Shown here one piece after another: positions 20,825 to 64,000 of a stretch of DNA of 64,000 bases (position 1 is its first letter; each line of letters begins with the position of its first letter). Source of the DNA: Candidatus Methylacidiphilales bacterium (GTDB taxonomy: Bacteria; Verrucomicrobiota; Verrucomicrobiia; Methylacidiphilales; UBA1321); contig JBGGNE010000021.1 of assembly GCA_041287705.1 (NCBI GenBank), positions 12,282 to 76,281 of the forward strand, in the 5' to 3' direction. Made by a program: the position numbers and the translations under genes. The notes beneath the pieces were generated by a model that saw only the letters and a list, made by a program, of their open reading frames with translations, made no database searches and was not told the origin of the DNA.

Positions 20825-21963
20825 TTGGCAAGATCCGATGCGGCTGCCTTCGCTAAAAGGAGCAATGTTGCAGAGTAATAGCTATCTCCTTCGACCATTC
20901 CCGGCCATCTGATGGAAGCCAGCGGCCTCTTTTCCAGAACGGCCTGAGCCAGCAGGTAAATAGCCTCTTCCCCGGGAGGTGCGGCGTAATCAGCAGGTTC
21001 ATCGTCATCCAGGCCCACAGTGGCGACTGGTCGGCCTCCCACTTGCTTTTCCGACCAGAACTCCACAAACGGCTTCAGCAACGCCTCGTCGCTGGCCTGT
21101 CCGGCCCAGGCCAGGTAGAGTGGAATACGGAACGCGTTGTAGCCGAATTCCTGGGGAAACTGCTCTTTGGGCGGCATCCCTACCGCGCCGATTTCATCCA
21201 CGAAAAGCCAGTCCGGAGGCAGCTTCCACTTACCGTATTTCGCAATGCCTAACAGCCGGCGACCGCTGGAATCCAGCGCCGTCCACACTGTGTTGCCCGT
21301 CAGCTCCCTAAATTCATGAAACGCAGGGAAGATCCAGTACGAAAGATTCACGATCGTGCGCCCCCCTTCTTTCTGGAAACCGATCAGCCCAGGGACCAGC
21401 AGCATCCCGTGCGGCGACTGCACCGTCAGGCGCTCGGCCAGTGCAAGTGCAAACGGCTGAGCCTCAGCGGCATATTTGGAATCCGGCCAACGCTTCGAAG
21501 CGCGGATCAACGCCCATGCGACCAGCACTTCGCCATCGCTGGCGTTATTCGGGTCATCCACATGGCCACCCGTGCCGGAAACGTCGGGAATCCAGCTCCA
21601 GCTCAGCAGGCCATCCTGTCGAGCCAGGTGAGTCTTCGTCCAGCCCCACATTTCGTCAAAGGCGGCCCGGTCTCCATAGTGCTCTGCCAGCATCATGCCG
21701 TAGCCCTGACCTTCTGTATGGCTTTTATTACCGTTGCCGGTATCGACAATGCGACCTTCGGGGCGCAAATATCGGGCCTTATAGGTGGTCCATTCGCGAT
21801 CGGTAACCGTTCCGGCTTTCTCGCCGGAAAAACAGCCCCAGAAGAACGACGGAATGCCGAGAATGCACATCATAACAGGCAATCCCCAGACACGTCCGCG
21901 CCGAGGGCGCTGCCCAGGGTGGGAGGCGGGGATCGGGAAAGAGGTGGCGCTCTGATGAACCAT
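20821..21963 (-). CDS. bcsZ: Glycoside hydrolase family 8 endoglucanase (BcsZ-like)
   Basis: GNKSHTEGQGYGMMLAEHYGD (GH8 catalytic-Glu block), ...ASDGEVLVAWAL..., and the signal/TM segment WGLPVMMCILGIPSFFWGC. I chose the start at ATG 21963 (MVHQSAT). Confidence 0.85.
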   Translation of the reverse strand: MVHQSATSFPIPASHPGQRPRRGRVWGLPVMMCILGIPSFFWGCFSGEKAGTVTDREWTTYKARYLRPEGRIVDTGNGNKSHTEGQGYGMMLAEHYGDRAAFDEMWGWTKTHLARQDGLLSWSWIPDVSGTGGHVDDPNNASDGEVLVAWALIRASKRWPDSKYAAEAQPFALALAERLTVQSPHGMLLVPGLIGFQKEGGRTIVNLSYWIFPAFHEFRELTGNTVWTALDSSGRRLLGIAKYGKWKLPPDWLFVDEIGAVGMPPKEQFPQEFGYNAFRIPLYLAWAGQASDEALLKPFVEFWSEKQVGGRPVATVGLDDDEPADYAAPPGEEAIYLLAQAVLEKRPLASIRWPGMVEGDSYYSATLLLLAKAAASDLAK

Positions 21964-22472
21964 GACGCCGGGGTTTTTACGATTTAAAGCGTGAAAAGTA
22001 AAGAAAATGAGTAACCCTTTCAGACAAATAATGTTATGACACATGTATAAGAGCAAATGTATAAAAAGAAAACAAGACAGCTCCGCCGCCAACCTTCCGA
22101 CACTGAAAGGTCATGTCTACAACTGGCCCGAAATTGAGCTAAACTTTGGGCTAAAGGATACGACAACTCATCAAAGACACTCACAAAATATAGTATGAAT
22201 TACGATATTCCGCCCTTTAGATACAGTCCGATTGCTTCAATGGTACTGCATCTCAATGGAGGATGATCAACAACAACTCCTGCAAATGAAATCGGTTAAA
22301 TATCGACAAAAGCCGACTTCCAATTAATCTCATCATTGTCGTACCCAACACGAAACCTTTTCCGCGTCTCTGAGGAAGATCGTGCGTAAAGCCTTAGTCA
22401 AAAGATATTAGCCGATATTTTCCTTGACCCGACACCACTCCTTCCTGCTATTAACTCCGCACCCCTATCCCC
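21964..22472. promoter_or_regulatory. ~510-bp AT-rich divergent control region between bcsZ-bcsC and bcsA-bcsB
   Basis: There is no credible ORF, GC is markedly lower than in the flanks, and it lies between two divergently transcribed halves of the bcs locus. No specific promoter boxes could be assigned. Confidence 0.4.
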
Positions 22473-24734: not shown

Positions 24735-24777
24735 TATTCACTTTGCAATAGTAAACACACACTACTTCATACACGTT

Positions 24778-27138
24778 ATGCGATCGATTCTCATTGCACT
24801 GGCCATCTGCCTGCATATTACTGGTAATACATTTGCACAGGTAATACCCACGCCCAGCCCCACGCCTACACCGACTACCAGCGGCACGAATCCCCCTTCA
24901 GTTGTAACGCCAGGCGTTACCCCCAGTACCTCTGGCAATCTGCCGCCAGGCGCCCCGGCACCTGCCCCTGCAACATCCTCTGCTGCCGCACCTGTATTGG
25001 ATCCCAATACACGTACGCTTGCCTCCTTCATGGATAAGGACGGTCAGGTCATGCTGCGTCATGACGAAGCGCAGTACCGCTTCTCTATCCCCCTTAGCGC
25101 CCGTATGAATGTGACGGGCGGACAGGTTGTTCTTAACTACGTCAATTCGATCAGCCTTCTTGGTGAGCGCTCTCAGATCTACGTTACCTGGGATCAAAAG
25201 GTTCTCGGCCAGCTTCCTCTTCTCGGTACCAACCCCACGGGCCGCCTGATAGCCCCGCTGGATATTAAAGGCTATACCAAGCCTGGTTACCATGATTTGC
25301 ATATCAATGTTGCCCAGCACTATACCTTAAAGTGCGAAAACCCCTCGGCTCCCGAGCTCTGGACACAGGTTGATCCCCTTACCTCCACAGTAACGCTTCA
25401 GTATGAGCTAAAGCCTCTCAAGCCTCGTCTTTCTGAGCTTTCTGATCTTATTGATGACAAGCTCTGGCTTCCCTTCAAGCTGCACATTGTCACCACCTCT
25501 TCCAACAGCATGCAGGATCATCACCTGCAATGGGGCGCCCTGGTAACGCAACGCGCAAGCCTTCTTTTAAAATATCGTCCTCTCGAGTTAACCCACAGCG
25601 CCGGACTTATCGCCAATGGCGACCAGGTTGTTATCGGAACCCGGGATGAGCTCTCCGCTATTCTTCCTGCTTCTATCTCAGATTCTATTAACAACAGCTT
25701 CATTGGTATCTTCGCTAATCCCAAGGATCCCCGCTACTTCATTCTTGTTGTATCCGGGCGCGATATTGATGGCGTCACCAAAGCAGCAAAGGCATTCGCA
25801 GCCCTCAGCTTCCCACTGCCGGCAACTCCTACTATGGAAGTTGCCGACGTAGCACTGCCGGAGATCCCTGTCCGCGAAATGCCCTCCACTGCCCAGCCTT
25901 CCACTTCGTACAAGTTTTCGCAGTTTGGTTTCCGAAGCGGTACCCTGCAGGGCATGAATACGGGCGGCTTCCGTATTACGGTAAACATGCCGGCAGATAT
26001 CTATGCTGCTGAGCACGTCAATCTTCGCTTCCGTCTTCACTTTGCCCATGGCGCTCGTCTTCGCCCGGATTCCGTATTTAATGTCTTCCTCAATGGCCGA
26101 TTCGAAAACGTTATTTATCTGAACACCGATTCAGGATCGGTATATCGCGACTACTCACTGACGGTGCCTCTGCGCTCCTTTGATAAAGGCGCTAATCTTA
26201 TTGAGTTCGTACCTCAAATGGTGCCGCTGGTATCCGATCAGTGCGAAATTATTCAGACGGAAAATCTGCTGTTTACGCTGTTTGATGACTCCGTAATGGA
26301 TGTACCTGCGGCTACCCGCTACGTTCAGATGCCGAATCTTCGCCTGACAGGACGTACCGGCTTCCCTTACCTGGAAAAATCGACAGGAGCAACGTGCGCC
26401 ATCCAGGTTGCTGCGCCGGACAGCGGCTCAGTGGCCGCGGCCTGGATGATTCTGGCCAAGCTTACCCGCCTTGCGGGCGCTCCCCTTACCGATGCGATTA
26501 TCACCTTCCGCCGTCCTCCTGAGGATCGCGACTGGATCGTTGTTGGAGTTTACTCGCAGGTCGACCCCAAGCTGGCGGCGGCAGCACCGATTAAGTTCCT
26601 TACCGGCGGGCAAATCCCCAACGTGTTTAACAAACTGCCTGAAGGCACAGCTACCATCTCCCAGGGTTTCATGGGCTTCCTGAAGAGCCTCGGTCTGGAC
26701 ACCTCTGAACCCCCGGCTGATCCCGTCAAGAAGCTGGACACTGTCTCCGGGTCCAACTCGCCTGCTGATCTGGGAGTTCTGATGCAGTTTGAATCCCCCT
26801 ACGCAAGCGGCCGAACCATCACTCTGGCCACCGCCACCAGTGGCGAAATCCTCCAGGCTCGCGTGGCCAGCCTGGTTAAGGATGAATGGTGGAGCTCCAT
26901 CAACGGCGACTCGATGATCTGGGGAGAACCGCTGCGCAGCATCGCCAACGAAACGTTCGCGAAGCCTTACTATCTGGGCTCTTACAATCCGGGAACGGCC
27001 ATTCAATACCAGTTCTCCCAGCGTCCCTGGCTCTGGATCGTCTGCGTGTTCGCACTGGTGATCGTTTTTGCACTGTTGACCCGGAAAGTCCTGTTTGCGT
27101 TCCGTACACGCGTCCATGGCAAGGGCGGCAAGCACTAA
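24778..27138 (+). CDS. bcsB: Cellulose synthase periplasmic subunit BcsB-like (signal peptide, C-terminal TM anchor)
   Basis: It lies immediately downstream of bcsA and overlaps it. The signal is MRSILIALAICLHITGNTFAQ. It has a ~790-aa periplasmic body and the C-terminal anchor WLWIVCVFALVIVFALLT. I chose the start at ATG 24778. Confidence 0.75.
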   Translation: MRSILIALAICLHITGNTFAQVIPTPSPTPTPTTSGTNPPSVVTPGVTPSTSGNLPPGAPAPAPATSSAAAPVLDPNTRTLASFMDKDGQVMLRHDEAQYRFSIPLSARMNVTGGQVVLNYVNSISLLGERSQIYVTWDQKVLGQLPLLGTNPTGRLIAPLDIKGYTKPGYHDLHINVAQHYTLKCENPSAPELWTQVDPLTSTVTLQYELKPLKPRLSELSDLIDDKLWLPFKLHIVTTSSNSMQDHHLQWGALVTQRASLLLKYRPLELTHSAGLIANGDQVVIGTRDELSAILPASISDSINNSFIGIFANPKDPRYFILVVSGRDIDGVTKAAKAFAALSFPLPATPTMEVADVALPEIPVREMPSTAQPSTSYKFSQFGFRSGTLQGMNTGGFRITVNMPADIYAAEHVNLRFRLHFAHGARLRPDSVFNVFLNGRFENVIYLNTDSGSVYRDYSLTVPLRSFDKGANLIEFVPQMVPLVSDQCEIIQTENLLFTLFDDSVMDVPAATRYVQMPNLRLTGRTGFPYLEKSTGATCAIQVAAPDSGSVAAAWMILAKLTRLAGAPLTDAIITFRRPPEDRDWIVVGVYSQVDPKLAAAAPIKFLTGGQIPNVFNKLPEGTATISQGFMGFLKSLGLDTSEPPADPVKKLDTVSGSNSPADLGVLMQFESPYASGRTITLATATSGEILQARVASLVKDEWWSSINGDSMIWGEPLRSIANETFAKPYYLGSYNPGTAIQYQFSQRPWLWIVCVFALVIVFALLTRKVLFAFRTRVHGKGGKH

Positions 27139-42784: not shown

Positions 42785-45700
42785 ATGGCGATGGCTCCCC
42801 TGCCCCCAGATGAGTCGCAGAGACTGGCTTCCCTGCGCTCGCTCATCGAATACGGCGTTACCAGCGAGGAGCGGCTGGGACGTATCACGCGGTTGGCCAA
42901 ACGACTCTTTAAAGTTCCGGCCGGCGCCATCACCCTCGTAGAGCGGGAGCAGCAACGTTTCTACGGTGCCTTTGGCAGTGAGCTTATTCATGGTGAAAGA
43001 GAAAACAGCTTCAACAGCTACGCCATCCTTCAGGACGCGCCCCTCATCGTCCCCGATGCTCTTCAGGATTCCCGGTTCTGCGATATTCCGCAGGTTGTAA
43101 AAGGCGGAGTCCGCTCTTATGCCGGTTGCGCCCTGCATACGCCAGATGGAAGCCGCGTAGGCGCCCTGTTTGTGTTGGATGTTGAGCCGCACGCTTTTGC
43201 GGACGATGACGTACGCGAGCTTGTTGATCTGGCCCGCCTGGCGGAAGACGAACTCTGCCTGCGTATGTGGCAGACGGCCTGGGATGAGCGCGAGCGTACG
43301 GAAGCCAATTACCTTCTCAGCCAGCGCCGATTTCAGGATGTCGCGGACGCCATGGGCGAGTACATCTGGGAAATCGACAGTCAGGCCAGATACACATATC
43401 TAAGCGATCGTTTCTGCGACATGCTGGGCTACACGCGCGAGGAAGCGCTGGGCCGTGCCATGTTCGATTTTATGATCGCGGGCGATGCGGAGGCCGTGCG
43501 GTACTGGTTCTTCGAGCAGGTGGCCGCCCATCGGCACCCATTCCGCAGCCTGGAATTCCGCAGTGTCAGCAAGCAGGGCTATCTTATCTGGCAGTCGGTC
43601 AGCGGCGTGCCTGTTGTCGATAATTCCGGGGAACTGACCGGCTACCGTGGCGCCGGTCTGGATGTAACGGATCGCAAGCGCTCCGAGGAGCGGACCCGGC
43701 TGCTGGAGCAGGCCGTCAATGACGCGATGGAAAGTGTGCTGATCACCGACACAACGCTCAATCATCCGGGCCCAACGATCATTTATGCCAATCGCGCGGC
43801 TGAGCGCATGACCGGCTATCTTCGCGACGAACTCGTTGGCAAAAGCCCTCGCCTTCTGCAGGGACCCAAAACCAACAAGGACATGCTGCGCCATTTGCGT
43901 ATGGCGCTGGACCAGGGCCGCGGTTTTCAGGCGGAAAGCGTCAATTACCGCAAGGATGGCTCCGAGTATGTCGTGGAGCTTCATATCTCCCCGATCCGCG
44001 ATTCGCATGGCGTTATTACGCACTGGCTTTCCGTGCAGCGCGATATCAGCGAACGCCAACAGGCCGAGCAGGCGCTGCGCGACGCCGAAGAGTCGTACCG
44101 CACGATCTACGAGAACGTAAAGGAAGGTATCTTCCAGACCACGGTGGACGGCCGCTTTTGCAGCGCCAACCCCGCGCTCGCCCATATCTACGGCTACGAA
44201 TCTCCCGAAGATTTACTCGAGTGCGTCGAAGACGTTTCGACCCAGCTATATTGCGAGCCAAGCCGGCGGGAGGAAATCTGTATCTTCATTGACCGCGAAG
44301 GCGAAGTGCACGGACTGGAGTCCCGTGTGTATCGAAAGGACGGCTCGTCGATCTGGATTTCAGAGACATCGCGCGCGGTCCGCGATGAAGACGGGCAGCT
44401 TCTTTATTACGAAGGAACTGTTCAGGACATCACCGACCGCAAGAAGGCGGACGATGAACTGCGACGCGCGAAGGAAGCCGCCGAAACGGCAAATCAGGCG
44501 AAATCGGAATTTCTGGCGAACATGAGCCACGAAATCCGCACGCCCATGAACGCAATTGTGGGTCTTACGGGTCTCCTTCTCGATACAGAGCTGACATCCG
44601 AGCAGCGCGAATACGTGGAAACCGTACGTCAGAGCGGCGACGCGCTTCTTACGATCATCAACGACATTCTGGACTTCTCCAAGATCGAGAGCGGCAAGCT
44701 GGAAATTGAGCACGCGCCGTTCAACCTCCGTCTCATGCTGGAGGAAGCCGTGGACTACGTCAGCTCTCGCGCCAGCGAAAAGAAGCTGGATCTGGCAAGC
44801 CTGGTGGATCCCGGAGTGCCCCAGCAGTTTCTGGGTGATGTTACCCGTTTACGCCAGATCATTGCGAATCTGCTCAGCAACGCGGTGAAGTTCACCGAAA
44901 AGGGCGAAGTTTCCGTCACTGTTACCACCTCACGCCACGACGAGGGCGGCTGGTACTCGGTCACATTTGCCGTGCGCGATTCCGGCGTGGGCATTCCGCA
45001 GAACAAGATGGACCGGCTTTTCCGCTCGTTCAGCCAGGTGGATGCCTCCACCACACGCAAATACGGCGGCAGCGGACTGGGCCTCGCCATCAGCAAGAAG
45101 CTGAGCGAACTGATGGGCGGGGAAATTCATGTGGAAAGCAAAGTGGGCATTGGCTCCGTCTTTACCATCACCGTTCCGCTGGAAGGCGGCAGTGTGCAGA
45201 ACAGCCAGTTGCCCCTGCCCGCAGTGCGCCCCAACCTGAACGGCAAGACACTACTGGTAGTCGACGATAATGCCAGCGTGCGCCAGATGATCTCCAATCT
45301 GGGCGAAATGTGGAATATGAATGTGGTGCAATCGACCGACAGCCGCCATGCCCTGCAACTGGTGCAGCGCGGCCTGACGTTTGATGTAGCGCTTATTGAA
45401 CTCGAACTGCCCACCATTGACGGTGTGCGTCTTGGCCAGGAAATCGCCCGGCATCGCGGTCCGGAAACGCCGCCTCTCATTCTGCTGACCAGCATTTCCA
45501 ATCAGGCCGAACTTGTGAAGCGCATGCCACAGGGCTTCATCGCCAGCGTGGCGAAGCCAGTGCATATGGAGCAGCTACAGGAGATGCTGGATCAAAGCGT
45601 CACAGGACGCCGCGTCACCAAGAAATCATTGCGCTCTACCGGCAAAATCGATCCGCTGTTCGGCAAACGCCGCCCGATGAAGATACTGCTGGCCGAAGAT

Positions 45701-46417
45701 AATCCGGTCAACCAGAAGGTGGCGATGCGTATTCTCTCGCAAATGAGTTATCGCCCGGACGTTGCCCAGAATGGTCTGGAAGCACTTCAGGCGGTTGAGC
45801 GTCAAAACTATGACGTGATTCTCATGGACGTGCAGATGCCGGAAATGGACGGCCTGGAATCAACGCGCCAGATCCGCAAGCTGAAGAATAAGAAACAGCC
45901 CTACATCATCGCCATGACGGCCAACGCCATGCCCGGCGACAGCGACCGCTGTCTGGCCGCCGGCATGGACGCCTACATGAGTAAGCCGGTGCGCGTGGAG
46001 CAGCTTCAGACAGAACTGGCCAAATGCAGCGACAGTATGAAGCAGGTCGTCGATCTTTCCGCACTGGAACACTTTAGCCATCTTGGCGGCGAAAGTGATG
46101 AGGAAGGCCTGCTGGAAATCATCAACCTCTTCCTTGTCGACAGCCCCCGCACTGTCCACGCGCTGAATACCTCCCTGCAAAAGGAGGATGCAAACGCGAT
46201 CTACTATCACGCCCACACGTTAAAGGGCAGCTGCAGCAACTTCGGCGCAAAGCAGATGCAGATGGTCTGCACCAATATCGAAGAATTCGCCCGAAAACAG
46301 GATTTCAGCAGCGTCAGTGACTTACTCGAAGCCCTTCAGGCAGAGTTTGTCGAAGTGAAGAAAGCGCTGGAGTTGAAGCGGATGGATATCAAGAGCCGGC
46401 TGGCTTCCAGTCGGTAA
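42785..46417 (+). CDS. Hybrid sensor histidine kinase: GAF - three PAS - HisKA - HATPase - two REC - HPt
   Basis: The H-box is FLANMSHEIRTPMNAIVG. The ATPase is NLLSNAVKFT, RDSGVGIP and GGSGLGLAI. REC1 is LLVVDDNASV...ALIELELPTIDG. REC2 is ILLAEDNPVNQ...VILMDVQMPEMDG...MSKP. The C-terminal HPt is YYHAHTLKGSCSNFGA. PAS/GAF segments lie N-terminal to these. Confidence 0.9.
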   Translation: MAMAPLPPDESQRLASLRSLIEYGVTSEERLGRITRLAKRLFKVPAGAITLVEREQQRFYGAFGSELIHGERENSFNSYAILQDAPLIVPDALQDSRFCDIPQVVKGGVRSYAGCALHTPDGSRVGALFVLDVEPHAFADDDVRELVDLARLAEDELCLRMWQTAWDERERTEANYLLSQRRFQDVADAMGEYIWEIDSQARYTYLSDRFCDMLGYTREEALGRAMFDFMIAGDAEAVRYWFFEQVAAHRHPFRSLEFRSVSKQGYLIWQSVSGVPVVDNSGELTGYRGAGLDVTDRKRSEERTRLLEQAVNDAMESVLITDTTLNHPGPTIIYANRAAERMTGYLRDELVGKSPRLLQGPKTNKDMLRHLRMALDQGRGFQAESVNYRKDGSEYVVELHISPIRDSHGVITHWLSVQRDISERQQAEQALRDAEESYRTIYENVKEGIFQTTVDGRFCSANPALAHIYGYESPEDLLECVEDVSTQLYCEPSRREEICIFIDREGEVHGLESRVYRKDGSSIWISETSRAVRDEDGQLLYYEGTVQDITDRKKADDELRRAKEAAETANQAKSEFLANMSHEIRTPMNAIVGLTGLLLDTELTSEQREYVETVRQSGDALLTIINDILDFSKIESGKLEIEHAPFNLRLMLEEAVDYVSSRASEKKLDLASLVDPGVPQQFLGDVTRLRQIIANLLSNAVKFTEKGEVSVTVTTSRHDEGGWYSVTFAVRDSGVGIPQNKMDRLFRSFSQVDASTTRKYGGSGLGLAISKKLSELMGGEIHVESKVGIGSVFTITVPLEGGSVQNSQLPLPAVRPNLNGKTLLVVDDNASVRQMISNLGEMWNMNVVQSTDSRHALQLVQRGLTFDVALIELELPTIDGVRLGQEIARHRGPETPPLILLTSISNQAELVKRMPQGFIASVAKPVHMEQLQEMLDQSVTGRRVTKKSLRSTGKIDPLFGKRRPMKILLAEDNPVNQKVAMRILSQMSYRPDVAQNGLEALQAVERQNYDVILMDVQMPEMDGLESTRQIRKLKNKKQPYIIAMTANAMPGDSDRCLAAGMDAYMSKPVRVEQLQTELAKCSDSMKQVVDLSALEHFSHLGGESDEEGLLEIINLFLVDSPRTVHALNTSLQKEDANAIYYHAHTLKGSCSNFGAKQMQMVCTNIEEFARKQDFSSVSDLLEALQAEFVEVKKALELKRMDIKSRLASSR

Positions 46418-55216: not shown

Positions 55217-56164
55217 CTAGCGGTTATATTCCAGTCCTGCGACTTCCATTGTGGCACGCAGAATTGTTTCCCAGAGTACGGGGTCTTTGATTGCAGCGTT
55301 CTGATCGATCAGGCTGAGCTTACCCACACCTGCGGCTTTCAGCAGGTCGCTCGGCACCTTAAGGAAAACGCGATAGACCGCGAGCTGGCCTTTGGTGCCT
55401 CCACCGGCCTTGTTGACAATGGCATCAACCAGCGGCTTCAGCTTCTGACCATCGACAGGGAAAGTGGCAGGGACGGACGCATCATCTGCGGAATCGCTCA
55501 TGGGAGCAGAATTGGGTGTGCGGGCAGAGCCCTGCGGACCAAAACCAGGGGAAATCGGCGCGGCAGGAGAAGGAGGGCGCATTGAAGTAACGCCAGCGCG
55601 TGGAACAAAAGAGGGCTTCACAGGTGCCTGTTTGGGAGGAGGTGGCGCCAGAGAAGCAGCCGCCGGAGGAAGTGGCACAGTCTGCTGGCCGGCAGCCGAC
55701 TGCGCTTGAGGGTGGCCCTGAGGAGGATGAGCGCCGGAGGGCGGCGGCGCCATGAGGGAAGGTGCCTGGATTTTCTCCAGCGCTGCGAGCAGGGATTTCT
55801 CCAGCTGCTCCACGCTGGTGGAAATGCTGGACGCTATTGTGGAGGAAATGCCGGATGCCATCGCCTCCATGGCGACCAGCTGTTCGCGAGAAGCTGTCTG
55901 CACCTTATAATTCTGTGACGCGTGCCAGAACTCCCCGTAGCTGATCGGTTCAGCGCGGACCAGACCGTGCTCCAGAAGGCGCTCCAGAGCCTGGGTAACG
56001 GCGGCTTCGGTAATGCCCAGAGAGCTGCCGATCGAACTGCCCGGTTTTATTCCATCACACTGCTCCAGCACTTGCCAGTCATGGTAGTAGAGGAGAGGTT
56101 CTTCGCCAACGTGACTGCATGCAGCGGTTCGGCGGTAGGGCAGATGCGGATTCATAGCCATCAA
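55217..56164 (-). CDS. Hypothetical protein: N-terminal winged-helix-like segment, long Pro/Ala-rich linker, unknown C-terminal domain
   Basis: SSIGSSLGITEAAVTQALERLLEHGLVRAEP resembles a MarR/wHTH recognition helix. About 100 aa of low-complexity P/A/S follows. The gene is co-oriented with the second CheX-like gene and starts 24 nt downstream of it. Confidence 0.5.
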   Translation of the reverse strand: MMAMNPHLPYRRTAACSHVGEEPLLYYHDWQVLEQCDGIKPGSSIGSSLGITEAAVTQALERLLEHGLVRAEPISYGEFWHASQNYKVQTASREQLVAMEAMASGISSTIASSISTSVEQLEKSLLAALEKIQAPSLMAPPPSGAHPPQGHPQAQSAAGQQTVPLPPAAASLAPPPPKQAPVKPSFVPRAGVTSMRPPSPAAPISPGFGPQGSARTPNSAPMSDSADDASVPATFPVDGQKLKPLVDAIVNKAGGGTKGQLAVYRVFLKVPSDLLKAAGVGKLSLIDQNAAIKDPVLWETILRATMEVAGLEYNR

Positions 56165-56188
56165 TCTATCCGGCAGGCTGACGGTGGT

Positions 56189-56653
56189 TTAAGACTGAAG
56201 AGCAGGCACGTCGGGGCCCAGCACAATGCCCAGGATTCCCTTATGGGATTCCCAGTTGATGTCATAGGCAAACTGCGGCATACCGTCGGGGATGGGAAGG
56301 TCTTCGCCTTTTGATATGGCGATGGGAAGCGACACGCGGAAGCTGCTTCCAAAGTGCTCACGCGCATTGCTGGTCACGATGCTGGCGATTTCTCCCACGG
56401 CATCGCGGATCATCTCCGAGTCCTGCTGCTGCTCGCCAAGGCGGGTCAGCAGAGTCTTGGCCATTGGCCGTGTAAAGGAGATGTAGATCCAGCCGGGGGA
56501 GCTGCCGCTAAAACGGATAAAGCCGGTGTAGTCGAGCAGGCGCGGCGTGCCGAACTCGATGGATGGGCTTCCCAACTGGGGAGAGCAGCGCGTGGAATGC
56601 GTGAAGTAATTGCAGATGAGTTGTACGAAAACCGCAAGTTGGCCGTCGTCCAT
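56189..56653 (-). CDS. CheX-like protein, paralog 2 (catalytic Asn replaced by Ser)
   Basis: YTGFIRFSGSSPGWIYISF...DAVGEIASIVTSNAREHFGSSFRVSLP fits D-x3-E-x2-S-x18-P. I place the start at ATG 56653 (MDDGQLAV). The ORF-track GTG 56860 would add a Cys-rich, low-GC 69-aa extension. Confidence 0.6.
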   Translation of the reverse strand: MDDGQLAVFVQLICNYFTHSTRCSPQLGSPSIEFGTPRLLDYTGFIRFSGSSPGWIYISFTRPMAKTLLTRLGEQQQDSEMIRDAVGEIASIVTSNAREHFGSSFRVSLPIAISKGEDLPIPDGMPQFAYDINWESHKGILGIVLGPDVPALQS

Positions 56654-56881
56654 AAGAGTGTCCTCCGCTGGTAAGTGAGTAATACTATACAGGCTTGGTC
56701 TGATATTGCCAGCCGGCACGAGCCCGGAGAGCCTGCATTTTTCAGACTCCGGATTCCGGAATATGCCGGCGCAATAGTTCAACTGCCCAATAGAGGATCG
56801 ACACTTCGGTTGATAAACGTAAGCATTTGTGCAACAAAACAACACGATTTGAGTACCCACTTCAGCTAAATCATACTCCCC

Positions 56882-57337
56882 TTATTTGCTGCTAATAGCA
56901 ATAACGATGTATGACTTATAGTTTTGCCATTTAATGGGAATAATGAAATGGGGAATTTCGCGCGGCAGGCGGACGGTGGAAATTCCCTGAATGACGACCG
57001 GCACGGAAATCAGGAAGCCGGCCCCGAGATCGCGCTGGGCGTTACCAGCAATCGTATTGGCGATTTCGCCGACGAAATCAAGCGCCAGATCTGGCGCGCC
57101 ATAATCTTCGCCGGAAAGCTTCATCAGCGCCTCCAGCATCTGGCGGCTGGCGCTGTAGTACACGCAGCCGCGGTAAGAGCCGGAAATGCCGATAACAGCG
57201 GCGCAATCAAGCAGAAAGTCATCCTTCTCCGTGTCTTTTAAATAGGGCATGCCGACTTCGGCGGAGCGTCCCGCAACCGTCTCGAAGTAATTGACAGCGC
57301 CGTTAACGAAGGTTTTCAGTTGGGTTTCCATAGACAT
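56882..57337 (-). CDS. cheX: CheX-like CheY-P phosphatase, paralog 1
   Basis: DCAAVIGISGSYRGCVYYSA...DFVGEIANTIAGNAQRDLGAGFLISVP has the D-x3-E-x2-N...P motif of the CheC/CheX/FliY family. Confidence 0.7.
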   Translation of the reverse strand: MSMETQLKTFVNGAVNYFETVAGRSAEVGMPYLKDTEKDDFLLDCAAVIGISGSYRGCVYYSASRQMLEALMKLSGEDYGAPDLALDFVGEIANTIAGNAQRDLGAGFLISVPVVIQGISTVRLPREIPHFIIPIKWQNYKSYIVIAISSK

Positions 57338-57367
57338 AGGGGCGTCTTCTTAAGGGGTGGCGATCAA

Positions 57368-57727
57368 TTAGTCTTCGAGCACATCCACCACGGCTTCGCG
57401 CAGGGACTCTTCGTTAAAGGGTTTCAGTAGAAAACCATTGGCGCCTCGCTTCAGGGCTTCAACCGCCATGGAGCGATCGGATAGCGCGGAGATGACCAGG
57501 ATACGGGAGGTGGTATTGACGCGGCGGATCGCTTCCACGCATGTCAGGCCGTCCATCTCGGGCATCGTGATGTCCATGGTAATAAGGTCCGGCGCGAATT
57601 CGTTCAGGGTTCGCAGGGCCGCCTTGCCGGTGTTGGCGGTGCGGATTTCCTTGATCTGGAACGACTCCGCGTGGCGCTCAATAGCGCGGCGGATGAAGTT
57701 GGAGTCATCAACAATGAGAAGTTTCAC
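57368..57727 (-). CDS. cheY: Single-domain CheY-like response regulator
   Basis: MKLLIVDDSNFIRR...DLITMDITMPEMDG...VISAL...FLLKPF. 119 aa with a GTG start. Confidence 0.9.
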   Translation of the reverse strand: MKLLIVDDSNFIRRAIERHAESFQIKEIRTANTGKAALRTLNEFAPDLITMDITMPEMDGLTCVEAIRRVNTTSRILVISALSDRSMAVEALKRGANGFLLKPFNEESLREAVVDVLED

Positions 57728-57887
57728 AGGAGGATGGTGATGGGAATAATGAAATTATTTTGGGAGGCAGAATCGGGCCGGAACAGGCGCCGTTTGTGAT
57801 CGACCCGCCCCGGGTACAGCGGGCAGGCCTGCGATGACAGGGAGCAGCGTGGCTCGGGCGTCACGCTGCGGTAGAGAGCTTGGTTCG

Positions 57888-60224
57888 TCAGTTATTGAGT
57901 GCTTCGGCTGCAACACGGGAAGCGCCAGCCAGGGAATCGGCACCCATCTTGAAGTAGTATTCGCAGTTCTGGCGCGGTTCCGAGCAAACCGCGATTTCGC
58001 CGCCGCATTTCTCCACGATAGCGGTATAGACGAAGTCCATGCCAACCCCGCGTCCGGCGTCCACCGTTACGTCCTCCGCAGTGCTGAATCCAGGCTGGAA
58101 GATGAGGCCGGCCAGATCGTCCGGGCCATACTTGGGAGCATCGGCTTCAGAGACAAGCTCCAGATCGACAGCCCGCTTCAGAATCTTCTCGTAGTCCAGG
58201 CCGCGGCCATTATCGTGGAAGTGAATGCCGGCCACGCCGCCATCGTCGTTGTAACACAGCGCCAGAGTGATCGTGCCGAACTTTTCCTTGCCGTTCTTAA
58301 CACGTTCGTCGGGCGCTTCGATGCCGTGTGTTACCGCATTGCGCACCAGTTGAATCAGCACGTCCTTAAGCAGATTGTGGATCTCTGCGCTAAAGGCGTT
58401 GATATCGAAGTCCGCAGTCTCCAGCCGCACCTGTTTGCCCTGACGGGAAGCGATGGTATTGACCAGCTTGCCCAGACCGGTGATCAGCTCGTCACCCGCG
58501 GGAATGACATCTTTCTTCTCACCAGATTTTCCGTTTCCGTTGCTGTTGCCATTAGAGGTACTGGATTTCCCCTTACCTTTGCTCTTTGAATCGTCTGCAT
58601 CATCGCGAATGCTCAATTCGGCACCGCCGCGGAGATTACCCAGGCTCAGGGACTGACCGCGGATACCTACGAGACGCTGGCTGATGTCCTGAAGTTCGGC
58701 CAGATCGTTGCGAAGATCAGACTGGCAGATGACCAGGGAGAGGAAGTCGTCACCCGTAAGTGCGGGGCGATTGCGCAGCAGATGGATCTTCTCTTCAAAT
58801 TCACCCACTACACGCTCAAAATAGGAGAGCTGCAGGTAGGACGCACGGCCTTTCACGTTGTGCACGTGGCGGAACACTGTATCCAGGCACTTGCGAAGGT
58901 GATCGCTCTTGGCGCCACCGGCGCTGGCCGCTGCAAAGTCCTCCGCCTTCAGCACACTGTTCAGAGAGGCGAGCTCCTGGTTGGTCGTATCGATAAACTC
59001 GCGGACCTGAGCGGGCTCGACATGCAGGATACCCAGCAGAAGGTCGAACTGGCGTTCCTTGCGCTTTTCCGATGCGCGCAGTTCTTGTTCCAGTTGAACG
59101 CGTTGTGTAACGTCGTTCACCGTCACCAGCACCTGTTCAATTTCACCTTTACGCACAATGCGGCGGAAGGAGAAACCGAGATAGCGGGTAATGAAGCCAC
59201 CTTCCGGCTTGGAGAAGTTTACTTCCAGCTCCTCCAGCGGATTGACCTTCAGCACCTGGCGTTCCTTGAGCGCTCTATTAAAAAGCAGGTCGAAGTAATC
59301 GCGGGTCGTATTGTACATCTTTTCCGTCAGCAGGCGCTGCAGAAGGTTCAGCAGATTCATGCCTGCCAGATTATTGATGCGGAAGATGCCTTCCACTTCT
59401 CGCGAGTACTTGTCACCAATCAGACCCTTGCCGTCGATCAGGATCAGACCTTCGGCCACCGTATCGAGAATGAGCTCCGACTGCTGCTTGGACCGGCTAA
59501 GTTCCGCCGAGGAGGTTTCAAGATCCTGCGTAGTCTTCTGAAGCTGATCTACCGTTGCGCTGAGTGCAGTTGCAGATGCACGCTCACGGTTCAGGTAATA
59601 CATAATCGGAATGGACGAACCTGCCGCAATAGCAAGCAGGAAGCCGAGCACGATGCGCGGCCATTCCAGACTCGCTATACGCTGTTGGTTATATTTGTCT
59701 TCTTCCGACGTCAGAATTTCGGAAGCATCGTCGAAGCGTTTGGCGTTGGCATCAAAGTAGGCGATCGCCTTATCCAGCACGGCCAGATTGACTTTGCCCT
59801 GCTCTGCCACGATCTCCTTAACCATGTAGTCCAGTGGATTCCAGACTTCCTGCACCTCGCGAACGGTGTCGCGTGCCTTGGCAGTTTCGATCGGACGCAG
59901 ACGGGCGGTGTGACCCGTTACCGAAACGATACTATCGCCGCTTACAAAACCCTTAATGAGGGCATTCATACGACCGCGGGATGCTTCCAGCGAATCCAGT
60001 TCAGCGGCAGTAGGCTGAGTACCAGCACGCACTTCTTCGCGCAGCTTGGTAAGCGAGCGATAGACACGCAGCGGAATGATACGTTCGCGCAAAGAATTAT
60101 ACGTAACTTCCTTGGTCACGATACTCTCTTCCGTCAGCGCGTTATTAAGGTAAATAAGCGCGTAGACCATGGAACCCAACACGGTCAGCAGCACCGCGAC
60201 CACGATGACAAATACATTTCGCAT
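57888..60224 (-). CDS. Membrane-bound sensor kinase with CheA-type core: TM - periplasmic domain - TM - coiled coil/PAS - HPt - CheA-like HATPase (no P3, no P5)
   Basis: TM1 is VFVIVVAVLLTVLGSMVYALIYL and TM2 is IVLGFLLAIAAGSSIPIMYYL. PAS-like: ILDTVAEGLILIDGKGLIGDKYS. HPt: FRHVHNVKGRASYLQL. CheA-type ATPase: LIQLVRNAVTHGIE, HDNGRGLD, IFQPGFSTAED, AGRGVGMDFV. The protein ends about 40 aa later. Confidence 0.8.
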   Translation of the reverse strand: MRNVFVIVVAVLLTVLGSMVYALIYLNNALTEESIVTKEVTYNSLRERIIPLRVYRSLTKLREEVRAGTQPTAAELDSLEASRGRMNALIKGFVSGDSIVSVTGHTARLRPIETAKARDTVREVQEVWNPLDYMVKEIVAEQGKVNLAVLDKAIAYFDANAKRFDDASEILTSEEDKYNQQRIASLEWPRIVLGFLLAIAAGSSIPIMYYLNRERASATALSATVDQLQKTTQDLETSSAELSRSKQQSELILDTVAEGLILIDGKGLIGDKYSREVEGIFRINNLAGMNLLNLLQRLLTEKMYNTTRDYFDLLFNRALKERQVLKVNPLEELEVNFSKPEGGFITRYLGFSFRRIVRKGEIEQVLVTVNDVTQRVQLEQELRASEKRKERQFDLLLGILHVEPAQVREFIDTTNQELASLNSVLKAEDFAAASAGGAKSDHLRKCLDTVFRHVHNVKGRASYLQLSYFERVVGEFEEKIHLLRNRPALTGDDFLSLVICQSDLRNDLAELQDISQRLVGIRGQSLSLGNLRGGAELSIRDDADDSKSKGKGKSSTSNGNSNGNGKSGEKKDVIPAGDELITGLGKLVNTIASRQGKQVRLETADFDINAFSAEIHNLLKDVLIQLVRNAVTHGIEAPDERVKNGKEKFGTITLALCYNDDGGVAGIHFHDNGRGLDYEKILKRAVDLELVSEADAPKYGPDDLAGLIFQPGFSTAEDVTVDAGRGVGMDFVYTAIVEKCGGEIAVCSEPRQNCEYYFKMGADSLAGASRVAAEALNN

Positions 60225-60333
60225 AGTAATTACCTCAATCGAGTCCTAAGCAGATGTTAAGGGATGTTTGTTCCCCAGACAATCCTTTAATTGAATATTT
60301 AACCAAACCTTACGACTATCAGGAGCCTGATTT

Positions 60334-61035
60334 CTACCAGGCACCTCCCTGTCCAAAACTCATCCCCTCGTCCACGGCTTGGGAGAAATTGAGTAAAAGT
60401 TCCGTTACGCCGACATCCAGATTAGTAGAGGTGACAACCTCTCCCTCATACGAGCGGATCTGGATAGCTTCGGCACGACAAAGATCATAAAACGCATCAA
60501 CGCCCTGGTGGCCTGCGAAATCGGCAAAAACCAGACGCCCGCTCTTCAGCGACAGTGTCCCCTGCCCTTCCGAGGTCATGACCTCCAGGAAGCAGCTTTT
60601 GCGCTCCATCTGCAAAACCTGTACGAAGGTAATGAGAGGGATGCCGCTGAGGATCGAGTCCGGCGTAGCAGTCCACACGTCGGCAACACGATGAAGAAAA
60701 GTATTAAGATCAAGAGGCTTGGAAAGAAAAGTAAACCGGCGGGAATCCAGACCCAGGTTCTGCAGATCATCCGCCACATGGGGATCGCACAGCAAAATGA
60801 AGCGAAGGGCAGATGCGCTGTCTTCCAGGTTTTCCGTTACCAGCTCCAGCGCGTCTCCATCAGCCAGTTCCATATCGCAGATGATAATTCCCGATGCCAT
60901 GCCAGCCATACGCGAACGGATGCCCGCCAGTGTGGCAACGCGGTGCGAAGGCCATGTGGGAAACCGCTTCTCTACGGACTGGTGCAACCAAAAACCCTGC
61001 TCGGGCTCTGAACTGGCTATGAGGATGGATTTCAT
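60334..61035 (-). CDS. Degenerate receiver domain fused to a DUF4388/PATAN-like domain
   Basis: The REC-like part is ILIASSEPE (acidic pair missing), IIICDMELADGD (phospho-Asp position present) and FLSKPLD (conserved Lys). The C-terminal LSGIPLITFVQVLQMERKSCFLEVMTSEGQGTLSLKSGRLVFADFAGHQGVDAFYDL matches the DUF4388 pattern. Confidence 0.6.
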   Translation of the reverse strand: MKSILIASSEPEQGFWLHQSVEKRFPTWPSHRVATLAGIRSRMAGMASGIIICDMELADGDALELVTENLEDSASALRFILLCDPHVADDLQNLGLDSRRFTFLSKPLDLNTFLHRVADVWTATPDSILSGIPLITFVQVLQMERKSCFLEVMTSEGQGTLSLKSGRLVFADFAGHQGVDAFYDLCRAEAIQIRSYEGEVVTSTNLDVGVTELLLNFSQAVDEGMSFGQGGAW

Positions 61036-61695: not shown

Positions 61696-61727
61696 GAAAC
61701 CCGCTCTGCCTTCGCAAAGCGGGTTTT
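61696..61727 (-). terminator. Rho-independent terminator after the BNR-repeat gene
   Basis: The minus strand reads aaacccgct-ttgcgaaggcag-agcgggttt followed by cttttgtt. A smaller hairpin, ccaccgaaacggtgg, lies at 61786-61800. Confidence 0.65.
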
Positions 61728-61806: not shown

Positions 61807-64000
61807 TTACTGCTTCACTTTGAACATACCCGGGCCGGCAGCCCATAGATCGCCGGTAGTGTCGTTGTAACGCAGCACCAGAGGGCGTACGATGGGACAG
61901 TCACCGGTGATCTCCGTCCAGTTGGCGCCGCCGTCAGTGGTCTTGTAAATGCCACCAATTGCGTTACCGCTCCAGACAACGCTTGTGATCCAGATATTGT
62001 TGGGATCCTTGGGATGCACGGCGAAGCCCATTACCGTCTGGCCATTGTTGAATTTAGTAATGGCCTTCCAGGTGGCACCGTGATCCGTGCTGCGCCAGAG
62101 TTCCTTGCCACAGGCATAGATGGTGCCGTCGCCGCCGACTTCCAGATTGAAGATCCAGGCGTCGTTGCTGAACACGCGTTTCCAGGTCTGGCCGCCGTCA
62201 TCACTGCGATGAACACCGCCGTTGTCGCCACAGGCACCCCAGAAGAGGCGCTTGCTGTCGGTCGGATCAACCGCGAGGCCGTAGTACATGCGACGGCTTG
62301 TCGGCTGACTGGCCAGCTGCTTCCAGCTGTAACCGCCGTTTTCGGACTTAAAGATACCGCCGCCATTCTGACCGGGGGAAACATCGCCGTCGATGCCCAT
62401 GTAGACCACCTTGGGATTAGCGGGATCCACGGCAAGAGCGCGGGCATAACCCTGGCCCCACATGGTATTGGCACGCGGCACGTAAGTGGGGAGGCCAGCC
62501 ATGCTGGGGTTGTACGAATTGCCACCGTCTTCGCTGATCGCCACTTTGTTGGGGCTGTTATCCCAGGGGCTGACCGTTGAGATGATGCGCTCGACCGAGC
62601 TGCCGTCGTCAATAATCGCTATACGCCAGTTGTGGCCGCTGAAATCGGCTTTGTAGCTGATAGGCCACAGCTGCTTCCAGGTTTTGCCATCATCGGGGCT
62701 CATCAGAGTGCCTTCGTCCATGGCGGTGACGTAGGTATTACCCTTGTGGAAACGGATATCGGTGATGCACGAGATATCCGCCCCGCGAACCTTTTCCGTC
62801 CAGGTCTTGCCAAAATCGTCGCTGAGGCATGGACGCCAGTTAGCGCTCTGGTAGATCTGCTTTGGGTTATTAGGATTGATGACAACGTTTGTGGGTGCGC
62901 TCAGCGGAGTCAGACCATCCTTACCTGCCAGCATCAGCGTGGGATCCGCCGTATGGTCGGTCATGACGCTGTTGGAGCCCGTCCAGGTAGTGCCGCCGTC
63001 GTTGCTGTAATAGAAGTAGCCACCCCAGCCGACCACGCCGATGAGGCACATGTCCTTGGGATTGGTAGGGCTGATCGCGATGTCGCGGGCCGTCAGCTTG
63101 GGATTGAGCCCGGCGCTTAGAGCGGTCCATGTCTTGCCCAGATCAGTGGACTTCATAACGCCGTCGGTAAAGAACGTGGCGTAAAGGGTATTGGCATCCA
63201 GGGGATCCCAGGCAACGCTGGACGCCTTGGGGGGAGTCTTGAGCGCCGTCCACGTGGCACCCTTGTCGGTGCTGAGAATCAGGCCGCTGTCGGCCGTGGC
63301 TGCTGCTACCTGAGAGGTGTTCTTCGTGCTGACCGCAACAGTATAGATGGGGCCGCCCACGGGATCGCCAAAGCGGATGTTACCATAGCTGGCCATCGGC
63401 TTCTTCTCGCCCATATCTATCACTTTGACGGCAATGGGCTTATCTGCTGTGCCGGTCTGGCCGTCGGGGGTCTTGGTAACGGCGAAAAAGAACTTGCCGA
63501 ATTTGGCCACAACCGCGTTGTCCGGCAGTGGTCCGGAAACGGCATAGTCGAAACGATTTACCGTCGCCCAGTCCGGAGTCTGAGGAAGGGTCTTGGCCTT
63601 TTCCGGGTCTTTCTTGACGAGATCTGGATCTAGCGCAAAGTCTTCGGCACGAAGGATGATGTCCTGCTTCTCGGTGCCCTTGTAGATTTCCTTGAGATTC
63701 TTGCTGCGATAAGTCAGACCTGTGCTCGTCTTCAACATCAGGAAGGAATCCTGTACCGTGCTGCCATCGCCCTGAAATTCGAAGCCGACACCCACCGTGT
63801 CCGCACCCGTGATACCATCAGGGAACTTGAACGGAGTCCACCAGCCGCCGAAGAAAGCGCCGTTGATCTTGCCGAACTGAACCCGCCACATGCCGGAGGT
63901 ATCCGCAGAGATATCCTTGGTGTAGCTGGGTTTCCAGGTCTGGCCGCCGTCCGTGGTCTTGAAGAGCTTGCCGCCGGGACTGCCGGCATAGACCGTGTTG
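61807..64000 (-). CDS. BNR/Asp-box repeat beta-propeller protein (GH74/sortilin-like), N-terminus off the right edge
   Basis: More than 10 Asp-boxes (S/T-x-D-x-G-x-T/S-W) are present: STDKGATWT, STDLGKTWT, SNDGGTTWT, SDDFGKTWT, SPDDGKTWK, SENGGYSWK, SDDGGQTWK, STDHGATWK, TTDGGANWT. The frame stays open upstream of the track's Met (63891) to the window edge and encodes a further box, KTTDGGQTWK. Confidence 0.8.
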   Translation of the reverse strand, partial: NTVYAGSPGGKLFKTTDGGQTWKPSYTKDISADTSGMWRVQFGKINGAFFGGWWTPFKFPDGITGADTVGVGFEFQGDGSTVQDSFLMLKTSTGLTYRSKNLKEIYKGTEKQDIILRAEDFALDPDLVKKDPEKAKTLPQTPDWATVNRFDYAVSGPLPDNAVVAKFGKFFFAVTKTPDGQTGTADKPIAVKVIDMGEKKPMASYGNIRFGDPVGGPIYTVAVSTKNTSQVAAATADSGLILSTDKGATWTALKTPPKASSVAWDPLDANTLYATFFTDGVMKSTDLGKTWTALSAGLNPKLTARDIAISPTNPKDMCLIGVVGWGGYFYYSNDGGTTWTGSNSVMTDHTADPTLMLAGKDGLTPLSAPTNVVINPNNPKQIYQSANWRPCLSDDFGKTWTEKVRGADISCITDIRFHKGNTYVTAMDEGTLMSPDDGKTWKQLWPISYKADFSGHNWRIAIIDDGSSVERIISTVSPWDNSPNKVAISEDGGNSYNPSMAGLPTYVPRANTMWGQGYARALAVDPANPKVVYMGIDGDVSPGQNGGGIFKSENGGYSWKQLASQPTSRRMYYGLAVDPTDSKRLFWGACGDNGGVHRSDDGGQTWKRVFSNDAWIFNLEVGGDGTIYACGKELWRSTDHGATWKAITKFNNGQTVMGFAVHPKDPNNIWITSVVWSGNAIGGIYKTTDGGANWTEITGDCPIVRPLVLRYNDTTGDLWAAGPGMFKVKQ

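Follow-up and report, generated by a model that had tools for sequence, protein, structure and literature searches.

Can a kinase with the catalytic core of CheA do without chemoreceptors and CheW, and take its signals instead from a sensor built into the same protein? The question is raised by six open reading frames (ORFs) that lie head-to-tail on the minus strand at 55217-61035 of a 64-kb stretch of DNA from Candidatus Methylacidiphilales bacterium (assembly GCA_041287705.1, contig JBGGNE010000021.1, positions 12,282 to 76,281 of the forward strand; this whole stretch of 64,000 nucleotides is the window in what follows). An earlier note on the window had reported six co-oriented minus-strand genes here and had taken them for a chemosensory-like module that works without receptors, and the ORF listing places all six genes at the positions it gave. 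The observation of a six-gene sensor-kinase module is confirmed, and the interpretation attached to it is supported in part. In our reading the module is probably a self-contained pathway, independent of receptors and of CheW, that is built around a CheA-derived kinase core. Its genes are as follows.

60334..61035, minus strand: pseudo-receiver plus DUF4388/PATAN protein, 233 amino acids (aa); DUF4388 E 2e-10, receiver E 0.03
57888..60224, minus strand: membrane sensor kinase, 778 aa, with a CheA-type P1 + P4 core; Pfam, NCBIfam, alignment, AlphaFold and Foldseek
57368..57727, minus strand: CheY-like single-domain response regulator, 119 aa; Response_reg E 7e-30
56882..57337, minus strand: CheX1, 151 aa, predicted active phosphatase of phosphorylated CheY (CheY-P); Pfam CheX E 1e-16
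56189..56653, minus strand: CheX2, 154 aa (corrected start), CheX paralog; Pfam CheX E 2e-13
55217..56164, minus strand: fifth protein, 315 aa, winged helix-turn-helix (wHTH)-like and Pro-rich; weak wHTH matches, E 0.003-0.1

The kinase is 100% identical to an NCBI protein named 'MAG: ATP-binding protein [Candidatus Methylacidiphilales bacterium]' (MAG, metagenome-assembled genome). From the N-terminus it consists of a first transmembrane helix (TM1), a PilJ-like four-helix periplasmic domain, a second transmembrane helix (TM2), a coiled coil, a PAS-like domain, a P1-type histidine phosphotransfer (HPt) domain, a disordered linker and a P4-type ATPase, with these coordinates (residues in brackets):

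59595..60215, minus strand: TM1 (4-26), periplasmic PilJ-like domain (27-188) and TM2 (189-210); hydropathy and AlphaFold
59109..59456, minus strand: cytoplasmic PAS-like domain (257-372); most conserved family-specific region
58638..59027, minus strand: CheA-P1-type HPt four-helix bundle (400-529), phospho-acceptor His455 at 58860-58862; profile match, codon checked
58503..58637, minus strand: disordered K/S/G/N-rich linker (530-574), where CheA has P2 and P3; predicted local distance difference test (pLDDT) <50 for 529-574
57945..58502, minus strand: CheA-P4-type ATP-binding domain (575-760); profile and Foldseek

Hydropathy gives two hydrophobic segments, at about residues 4-26 and 189-210, on either side of a segment of ~160 aa. 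In the AlphaFold model, which was built on a 23-sequence alignment of the family (pLDDT 80), the N-terminal helices span residues 2-66, 73-95, 115-140 and 147-235, the last being a long helix that runs through TM2 into the coiled coil. The family profile matches the PilJ structures 7zjr/8wdf with E 1e-4, no stretch being significant alone. The PAS-like domain shows the order β2-α4-β3 in an α/β fold followed by a connector helix, it contains invariant columns of the 23-sequence alignment (within residues 252-383), and its NCBIfam matches are a weak one to the PAS model TIGR00229 (E 0.024) and others to PnpS/AtoS. Foldseek with the whole kinase model leads to PAS/LOV-histidine kinases such as 4gcz.

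Pfam matches on the kinase comprise HATPase_c (E 4e-11) and Hpt (E 5e-5). When a profile of the HPt region (400-530) was compared with solved structures, the engineered protein BRIC1 (6ff6) topped the list with E 3.5e-6, above the CheA P1 structures, which were the best natural matches (Thermotoga maritima 1tqg, E 1.5e-3; Salmonella 1i5n; Cereibacter sphaeroides CheA3-P1 3kyi). In the alignment with CheA P1, H455 falls on CheA His48, and P1 helix D is the counterpart of the 'GDDFL' helix. His455 sits on the second helix of the bundle within an HNVKG (HxxKG) motif, and is invariant in 23 and in 60 family sequences. The two transmembrane helices around a periplasmic segment, the coiled coil, the PAS-like region, the HPt box and the K/S/G/N-rich linker, all described in the earlier note, are thereby borne out.

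The ATPase is of the CheA type. Its family profile reaches E 1e-45 against CheA structures vs. 2e-5 against the best class-I kinase, Foldseek gives template modelling scores of 0.74-0.87 to CheA P4, and in a tblastn search of plasmids 590 of 590 matches were CheA-type. The domain is 32% identical to that of a canonical CheA in the same window, and the NCBIfam CheA models match the kinase over the P4 segment only (CheA_Halo, E 5e-38, model positions 360-527 of 666). The CheA-style N, G1, F and G2 motifs that had been noticed by eye fall on invariant columns of the 23-sequence alignment, which comprise H455/G459 in HNVKG, the N box, D671/G673/G675 in G1, F709/F713 in the F box and G724-R-G-x-G728 in G2. 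Whether 23 or 60 members are aligned, little or no variation is seen at the phospho-acceptor His and in the core of these four boxes.

Other parts expected of a CheA or of a class-I kinase are missing. HisKA-type, H-kinase_dim and CheW families gave no Pfam match in the kinase at E<=1, and neither the profile search against solved structures nor the AlphaFold model contains HisKA, P3 or P5. The protein ends 18 residues after P4, and therefore has no P5. Pfam H-kinase_dim is an insensitive model, which also missed the canonical CheA of the window at E<=1e-5, as has been pointed out by Berry et al. as well (PMC10782961); the conclusion that P3 is lacking rests on structural and alignment evidence rather than on the absent Pfam match. 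Judged by model and alignment, the kinase is without P3: the disordered linker directly precedes P4, and the helix before it corresponds to P1 helix D. The linker varies in length and measures only ~12-20 residues in relatives such as P0040, and is therefore too short there for a P3 hairpin. A possible P3 remnant had been suggested by a first profile, which aligned the 'GDDFLS-VIAQ' helix to the end of helix 1 of Escherichia coli CheA P3 (CheA residues 281-330), and was rejected because a profile of the HPt alone puts this helix on P1 helix D (1tqg, 3kyi). The earlier note, which had made its reading depend on the point, was thus right in seeing no H-box of a dimerisation and histidine phosphotransfer (DHp) domain, no P3 and no P5.

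In order to see whether this architecture recurs, we searched 1.84 billion cluster representatives (50% identity) with the PAS-HPt core (residues 236-522), a query free of P4 signal. At E<=1e-30 the search retrieved 438 representatives, and at the looser E<=1e-10 it retrieved 1,101; they are 290-1,691 aa long. Named members belong to Verrucomicrobiota, Eremiobacterota (Baltobacteraceae, Vulcanimicrobiaceae), Binatus MAGs and others, many more stem from unassigned metagenome contigs, and the Joint Genome Institute (JGI) annotation of many of them is 'CheA'. A Pfam census of 60 diverse representatives found HATPase_c in 57 and Hpt in 53. The input domains differ widely: PilJ in 21 representatives, HAMP in 10, dCache_1 in 6, the β-propellers Reg_prop/Y_Y_Y in 3, CHASE4 and GAF in 2 each, several PAS and one ammonium transporter. 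CheW, H-kinase_dim, HisKA and Response_reg are absent among the 25 Pfam families listed for these 60 representatives. The kinase is thus a member of a large, coherent and apparently undescribed family and not an oddity of one genome. The exchange of classical sensor domains across the family fits direct sensing without receptors and is the strongest indirect argument for it. One member bears an ammonium-transporter (Amt) domain at the N-terminus of the PAS-HPt-P4 core; a ROK domain is present in another. In such proteins the kinase would be coupled to a transporter or a metabolite.

From the P4 domains of 23 family members, of 13 CheAs encoded on plasmids and in the window, and with a class-I outgroup, a tree was built by neighbour joining. 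The outgroup is the catalytic and ATP-binding (CA) domain of a 1210-aa hybrid class-I kinase encoded at 42785-46417 (plus strand) of the window, with GAF, three PAS, HisKA, HATPase_c, two receiver (REC) domains and a C-terminal Hpt. The P4 domains of the family form a clade of their own in 99 of 100 bootstraps. Monophyly of the CheAs was recovered in only 24 of 100, and a family that is sister to all CheA and one that is nested within them both fit the tree.

The neighbourhood of the kinase gene was compared in 87 loci with 89 kinase copies, a sample that was not dereplicated; the locus scan had given 3 loci with a single-protein query of the genome collection and 79 with an alignment query on metagenomes. 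The full set of six genes is found in collinear order in four related loci, namely three Verrucomicrobia genomes (L001-L003) and a near-identical metagenome contig (L009), so that the synteny in relatives on which the earlier note had staked its reading does exist. The kinase is 67% identical in Verrucomicrobia bacterium LW23 and 44% identical in the two further Verrucomicrobia genomes. Of the 72 copies with enough downstream sequence, 68 have a CheY gene as the next one after the kinase. Among the 67 copies with at least 1.5 kb downstream, 52 have CheX (two CheX genes in 23, one in 29) and 15 have none. The gene order is kept between phyla (Verrucomicrobiota and Eremiobacterota). No hairpin-tip motif of methyl-accepting chemotaxis proteins (MCPs) was found in 1.01 Mb of related loci plus window, and the only other P4-type ORF in this material is the canonical CheA of the window itself.

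The CheY of the module has the characteristic residues of a receiver: the acidic pair D7 and D8, the phospho-acceptor D52, S80 and K102. The two CheX proteins differ at their active sites, for which the consensus D/S-x3-E-x2-N has been described, the Glu binding CheY-P and the Asn positioning the attacking water (PMC12887009). CheX1 follows it with D87-FVG-E-IA-N94, while in CheX2 (D84-AVG-E-IA-S91) the Asn is replaced by Ser. The same division holds in related loci, where D/E-x3-E-x2-N is kept in every first-position and every single CheX with a complete CheX domain, whereas the second CheX, in 22 of 24 paired cases, carries Ser, Gly or Gln where the catalytic Asn would be (L058 and L064/L086 being exceptions or variants). 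CheX1 is predicted to be an active CheY-P phosphatase; CheX2 is probably a pseudo-phosphatase or a CheY-P binder. The proposal of a dedicated phosphatase pair for fast reset consequently does not seem to hold for the second of its two members. Loss of the Asn, together with the co-occurrence of CheX2 with the fifth protein's C-terminal domain, suggests a role as CheY-P-binding adaptor or a CheX1/CheX2 heterodimer.

The fifth protein is modelled as a wHTH-like N-domain of three helices and a wing (27-73), a long helix (76-133), a disordered Pro-rich linker (136-235) and a small helical C-domain (242-309). Of 44 loci that have CheX, 43 also have this protein, against 0 of 14 loci that lack CheX; its C-domain is found in 20 of 20 two-CheX loci but in only 1 of 24 loci with a single CheX. 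Its homologs belong to no Pfam family and are all annotated 'hypothetical'. The earlier note had called it a wHTH/Pro-rich protein, and as a description this stands: Foldseek gives weak matches to MarR/ArsR proteins (E>=0.06), and the linker is Pro-rich. DNA binding, on the other hand, is unlikely, since the wHTH-like N-domain is acidic in 9 of 12 members. Its identification as a DNA-binding regulator of the MarR type, which had only sub-threshold wHTH matches in its favour and the acidic domain against it, was judged unlikely, and a relationship to DUF4388/PATAN was rejected (hhalign probability 0.2%). The protein is a candidate output or scaffold that, from its distribution, appears to track CheX rather than to be a generic transcription factor.

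The gene upstream of the kinase encodes DUF4388 (PF14332) at residues 129-223 of 233, preceded by a receiver-like domain that reaches only 15 bits against a cutoff of 30.2. The acidic pair of this domain is replaced (SS or EP), and the position of Asp54 is occupied by Asp in two orthologs and by Glu in two (L002/L003). Only 4 of 61 loci have this gene upstream of the one for the kinase. It had been thought perhaps to receive phosphoryl groups from the kinase alongside CheY; with a degenerate receiver and so narrow a distribution, the protein is a pseudo-receiver and a lineage-specific accessory, and an unlikely target of phosphorylation. In Synechocystis the PATAN domain is an output module that binds PilB1 and PilC (bioRxiv 10.1101/2021.06.11.447907); pilus genes near the DUF4388 gene were not found in the window.

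The module itself contains no MCP, CheW, CheR or CheB, as the earlier note had observed, but the same does not hold for the genome. A canonical cluster on the plus strand of the window encodes CheW (5436-6173), a 1176-aa CheA-REC (6247-9774) with Hpt, HATPase_c, CheW and REC domains, CheB (9803-10939) and a REC-PP2C/SpoIIE phosphatase (11214-12431). The earlier description of a circuit without an array is therefore apt for the module, in which MCP and CheW are missing, and not for the genome, which has a CheW-CheA-CheB cluster at 5436-10939 of the window. No MCP or CheR was seen adjoining that cluster. It resembles an 'alternative cellular function' pathway with an output of the partner-switching type. 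Cellulose synthase genes follow a few kb downstream, at 17669-27138, in two divergent units: a BcsC-like TPR/outer-membrane protein (17669-20824) and a GH8 endoglucanase (20821-22092) on the minus strand, and a BcsA-like glycosyltransferase (22473-24734) and BcsB (24712-27138) on the plus strand. The canonical cluster may regulate exopolysaccharide, given the adjoining cellulose genes.

We propose the following scheme for the sensor-kinase module. The kinase would probably dimerise through its periplasmic four-helix bundle, transmembrane helices, coiled coil and PAS domain, like ordinary sensor kinases, and perceive its signal with the PilJ-like domain, the PAS domain or both. The signal may alter the access of the flexibly tethered P4 to the adjacent P1-type HPt, and thus the rate at which His455 is phosphorylated. 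From there the phosphoryl group would pass to Asp52 of the CheY encoded downstream, as the near-universal synteny of the two genes suggests, and CheX1, with its Glu/Asn pair intact, would hydrolyse CheY-P and keep the signal short-lived. In the weakest step of the scheme, CheX2 and the fifth protein would most likely serve as CheY-P-binding output or scaffold, acting by protein-protein contacts and not on DNA. The pseudo-receiver-DUF4388 protein may be an add-on of a Methylacidiphilales-like lineage that, to speculate from the cyanobacterial PATAN, could couple the module to a pilus- or secretion-type ATPase.

Several points weigh against such a self-contained pathway. We infer every phosphoryl-transfer step, the phosphatase activity, dimerisation and the output from sequences and models. 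The Hpt match of the window's kinase, at 23.9 bits, lies just under the Pfam gathering score of 24.6. The AlphaFold model of the fifth protein reaches no more than moderate confidence (pLDDT 61), and structure comparison gave it no significant match. CheX and the fifth protein are missing from 15 of the 67 family loci, and are therefore not obligatory partners of the kinase; the synteny counts moreover overstate the number of independent observations, the sample of 87 loci not being dereplicated. Finally, the canonical CheW/CheA-REC/CheB cluster lies 45 kb from the module. Cross-talk is possible, in that the P4 of the canonical CheA might phosphorylate the P1 of the module, or the two pathways might share CheY.

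This last point leads to a rival explanation, in which the kinase is an ordinary chemosensory component that works within or alongside an array encoded elsewhere, as in the split CheA of Cereibacter sphaeroides (CheA3/CheA4); a canonical CheA would then phosphorylate the module's P1, or the module's P4 the canonical P1. The CheW, CheA-REC, CheB and REC-PP2C genes at 5436-12431 of the same window would supply the partners, complementary bipartite CheAs are documented (PMC10782961), and both P1 and P4 of the module are of the CheA type. We nevertheless consider this unlikely. With a conserved His and a complete ATP-binding domain the kinase has no need of a partner, it has a transmembrane sensor of its own in a family that swaps sensor domains like one-protein sensor kinases, and without P5 it has no known docking to CheW or receptors. 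The MCP tip motif is present in 0 of 87 related loci, and no P4-type ORF other than that of the window's canonical CheA was found among the loci and the window. The halves of a split CheA, finally, share one operon (PMC10782961), whereas the two clusters here are 45 kb apart.

The kinase could also be a class-I kinase in disguise, its 'HPt' being a divergent dimeric DHp and its CA domain merely CheA-like. A membrane sensor, a PAS domain, His-bearing helices and an ATPase do follow class-I logic, and Foldseek aligns the model to the PAS/LOV-DHp-CA kinases 4gcz, 8a6x and 4i5s with the helical region at the position of DHp, though at a root-mean-square deviation of more than 20 Å. This explanation seems very improbable in view of a chain that forms four helices and bears the His on the second of them, in HxxKG, the profile of the region, which matches CheA P1 structures and no DHp, and the lack of any HisKA family match at E<=1. 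A disordered linker of 45 residues precedes the ATPase, to which a DHp would be joined directly, and the ATPase matches CheA some 40 orders of magnitude better than class-I kinases. Decay has been considered as well: verrucomicrobial and metagenome-assembled genomes often have reduced che clusters, and a CheA that had lost P3 and P5 might have been fused by accident to a membrane protein, with little or no function left. CheX2 has indeed lost a catalytic residue, and the receiver of the DUF4388 protein is degenerate. Such a remnant is hardly to be expected, however, where the phospho-acceptor His and all ATP-binding boxes stay invariant across hundreds of family clusters, where gene order is kept between Verrucomicrobiota and Eremiobacterota, and where one contig (L052/L053) carries two complete copies of the module. 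The substitution in CheX2 is itself conserved, and therefore points to a new function rather than to decay. A self-contained pathway around a CheA-derived core thus remains our preferred reading.

Within the module, the start of CheX2 was set to the ATG at 56653 (154 aa) instead of the GTG at 56860, because the long ORF is conserved with the ortholog of LW23 only from residue 62 onwards and the ATG is preceded by GGAGGA. With this start the intergenic gaps are 109, 160, 30, 228 and 24 nt; the gaps had been called short, which does not hold for all of them. A sigma-70-like match (CTGGCA-17-TATAGT, 56684-56712, minus strand) lies inside the long 228-nt gap between CheX1 and CheX2 and hints at separate transcription of CheX2 and the fifth gene, although the number of such matches there is not above chance, and neither is the number of sites in a promoter and terminator scan of the region. 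Directly upstream of the module, at 61807-63891 (minus strand), lies a gene for a 694-aa BNR/Asp-box protein (a Sortilin-Vps10-like β-propeller), which is syntenic with the module in LW23 (66% identity) and is followed by a strong terminator-like hairpin:

61697..61726, minus strand: terminator-like hairpin (stem of 13 bp) behind the BNR-repeat gene; marks where the cluster ends upstream, as a positional hint only

Some relatives have other genes beside the kinase. A divergently transcribed transporter gene of the major facilitator superfamily (MFS) lies upstream of it in 29 of 61 loci (among them L004, L006, L010-L014, L027-L029 and L033-L051), mostly those of the one-CheX type, where 20 of 25 loci have it, and is absent from the window. 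It comes closest to the L-lactate SfMCT/oxalate-formate family, whose NCBIfam cutoff it narrowly misses (E 1e-80 to 1e-94), a possible clue that monocarboxylates are the ligand sensed in those lineages. Nitrate sensing, suggested by the PilJ/NarX-type domain and the upstream MFS gene, was set aside because the transporter is of the SfMCT/oxalate-formate family and not NarK, and does not occur in the window; it is kept as a lead for the relatives. In three loci of the short, CheX-less kinase-CheY subtype (L078, L081, L085) the co-oriented upstream genes encode the Calvin-cycle proteins RuBisCO large subunit, fructose-1,6-bisphosphatase and phosphoribulokinase, and in L065/L066 they encode the large subunit of a molybdopterin dehydrogenase with XdhC- and CoxE-like accessory genes. 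The two complete modules of the L052/L053 contig are tandem sets of five genes (kinase, CheY, CheX, CheX, fifth protein) at about 930-5200 and 6300-10700, which indicate duplication and diversification of the whole module.

How does the module relate to known systems? A full-text literature search, whose incomplete coverage makes an earlier mention possible, found no description of a sensor-fused P1+P4 or P5-less CheA, no report of an Asn-less CheX paralog and no link between CheX and DUF4388. Comparable in concept are the MAC (methyl-accepting coiled-coil) kinases of Wuichet and Zhulin, which, by the account in bioRxiv 10.1101/2022.05.07.491037, combine receptor-like and kinase domains in one protein, are linked to CheB/CheR-related domains and are left unclear as to whether they are a precursor or a remnant of chemotaxis systems. 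Like the present family, they appear to be chemotaxis-related and to unite receptor and kinase functions in one protein. By this secondary description, the family differs in having no MCP-like module, CheB or CheR and in using a P1+P4 core with CheY and CheX.

With the PatA-type (PATAN-REC) regulators of the cyanobacterial Tax/Pix systems, the module shares a DUF4388/PATAN domain with a receiver-like domain, encoded beside a CheA-type kinase. The order of domains is reversed, however, PatA having an N-terminal PATAN and a C-terminal receiver; the receiver of the module's protein is degenerate and probably not phosphorylatable, its gene is limited to a small sub-lineage and the window has no pilus genes close to it. 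As for CheX/CheC/FliY (Thermotoga, Borrelia, Vibrio CheX), both paralogs of the module match PF13690 and CheX1 has the D-x3-E-x2-N helix. CheX of the known cases is a homodimer, whereas here an adjacent second paralog systematically lacks the Asn and co-occurs with the C-domain of the fifth protein. This trio of CheX1, Asn-less CheX2 and fifth protein suggests that CheY-P signals are read or shaped in a manner so far uncharacterised.

Class I sensor kinases (NarX/NarQ, PAS-HisKA-HATPase_c) have in common with the module a periplasmic four-helix sensor (PilJ/NarX-type), a coiled coil, PAS, exchangeable inputs and one regulator for one kinase. In the module the phospho-acceptor is on a monomeric HPt bundle instead of a DHp and the ATPase is CheA-type, and the regulator is a CheY that stands alone and is accompanied by a dedicated CheX, where class I relies on the kinase's own phosphatase activity. 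Without DHp or HisKA the kinase is not of class I, although its N-terminal sensors are modular as in that class.

CheA, finally, shares with the kinase the P1-type HPt (alignment with His48), a P4 with CheA-specific N/G1/F/G2 boxes and GK insert, a His on a separate domain with a flexible linker, and the partners CheY and CheX. The kinase has no P2, P3 or P5, carries its own transmembrane and PAS sensor and is encoded in an operon without MCP or CheW; the P4 domains of its family form a separate clade (99/100). In textbooks and surveys, CheA-type kinases are sensor-less and work only via receptors and CheW. The core is given as P1-P3-P4-P5 by Berry, Andrianova & Zhulin 2023 (PMC10782961), whose census of 13,673 CheAs found P1, P3, P4 and P5 in all of them (CheW-like P5 in 100%) and describes CheA as without sensor domain. 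The present family falls outside such surveys, and suggests that ordinary sensor domains may directly drive a P1+P4 core. The family is of interest for the origin of chemotaxis pathways from two-component systems and offers a minimal system for the control of P4-P1 phosphorylation without a megadalton array. Specialists in chemotaxis and two-component systems may be moderately surprised, and both the origin and the minimal regulation of CheA-type kinases become testable. A bolder proposal, which we hold to be doubtful though not far-fetched, is that P1+P4 under a transmembrane sensor is a third design of histidine-kinase signalling, either a surviving relative of the ancestor of receptor-coupled CheA, dating from before a CheW-like domain split sensing from kinase activity, or an independent escape from the array, and that the dead CheX and the wHTH-like/Pro-rich protein are a new, non-flagellar read-out of CheY-P. 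By the definition of PMC10782961, at any rate, the kinase is not a CheA: it has P1 and P4, it lacks P3 and P5, and it carries the sensor that CheA does without.

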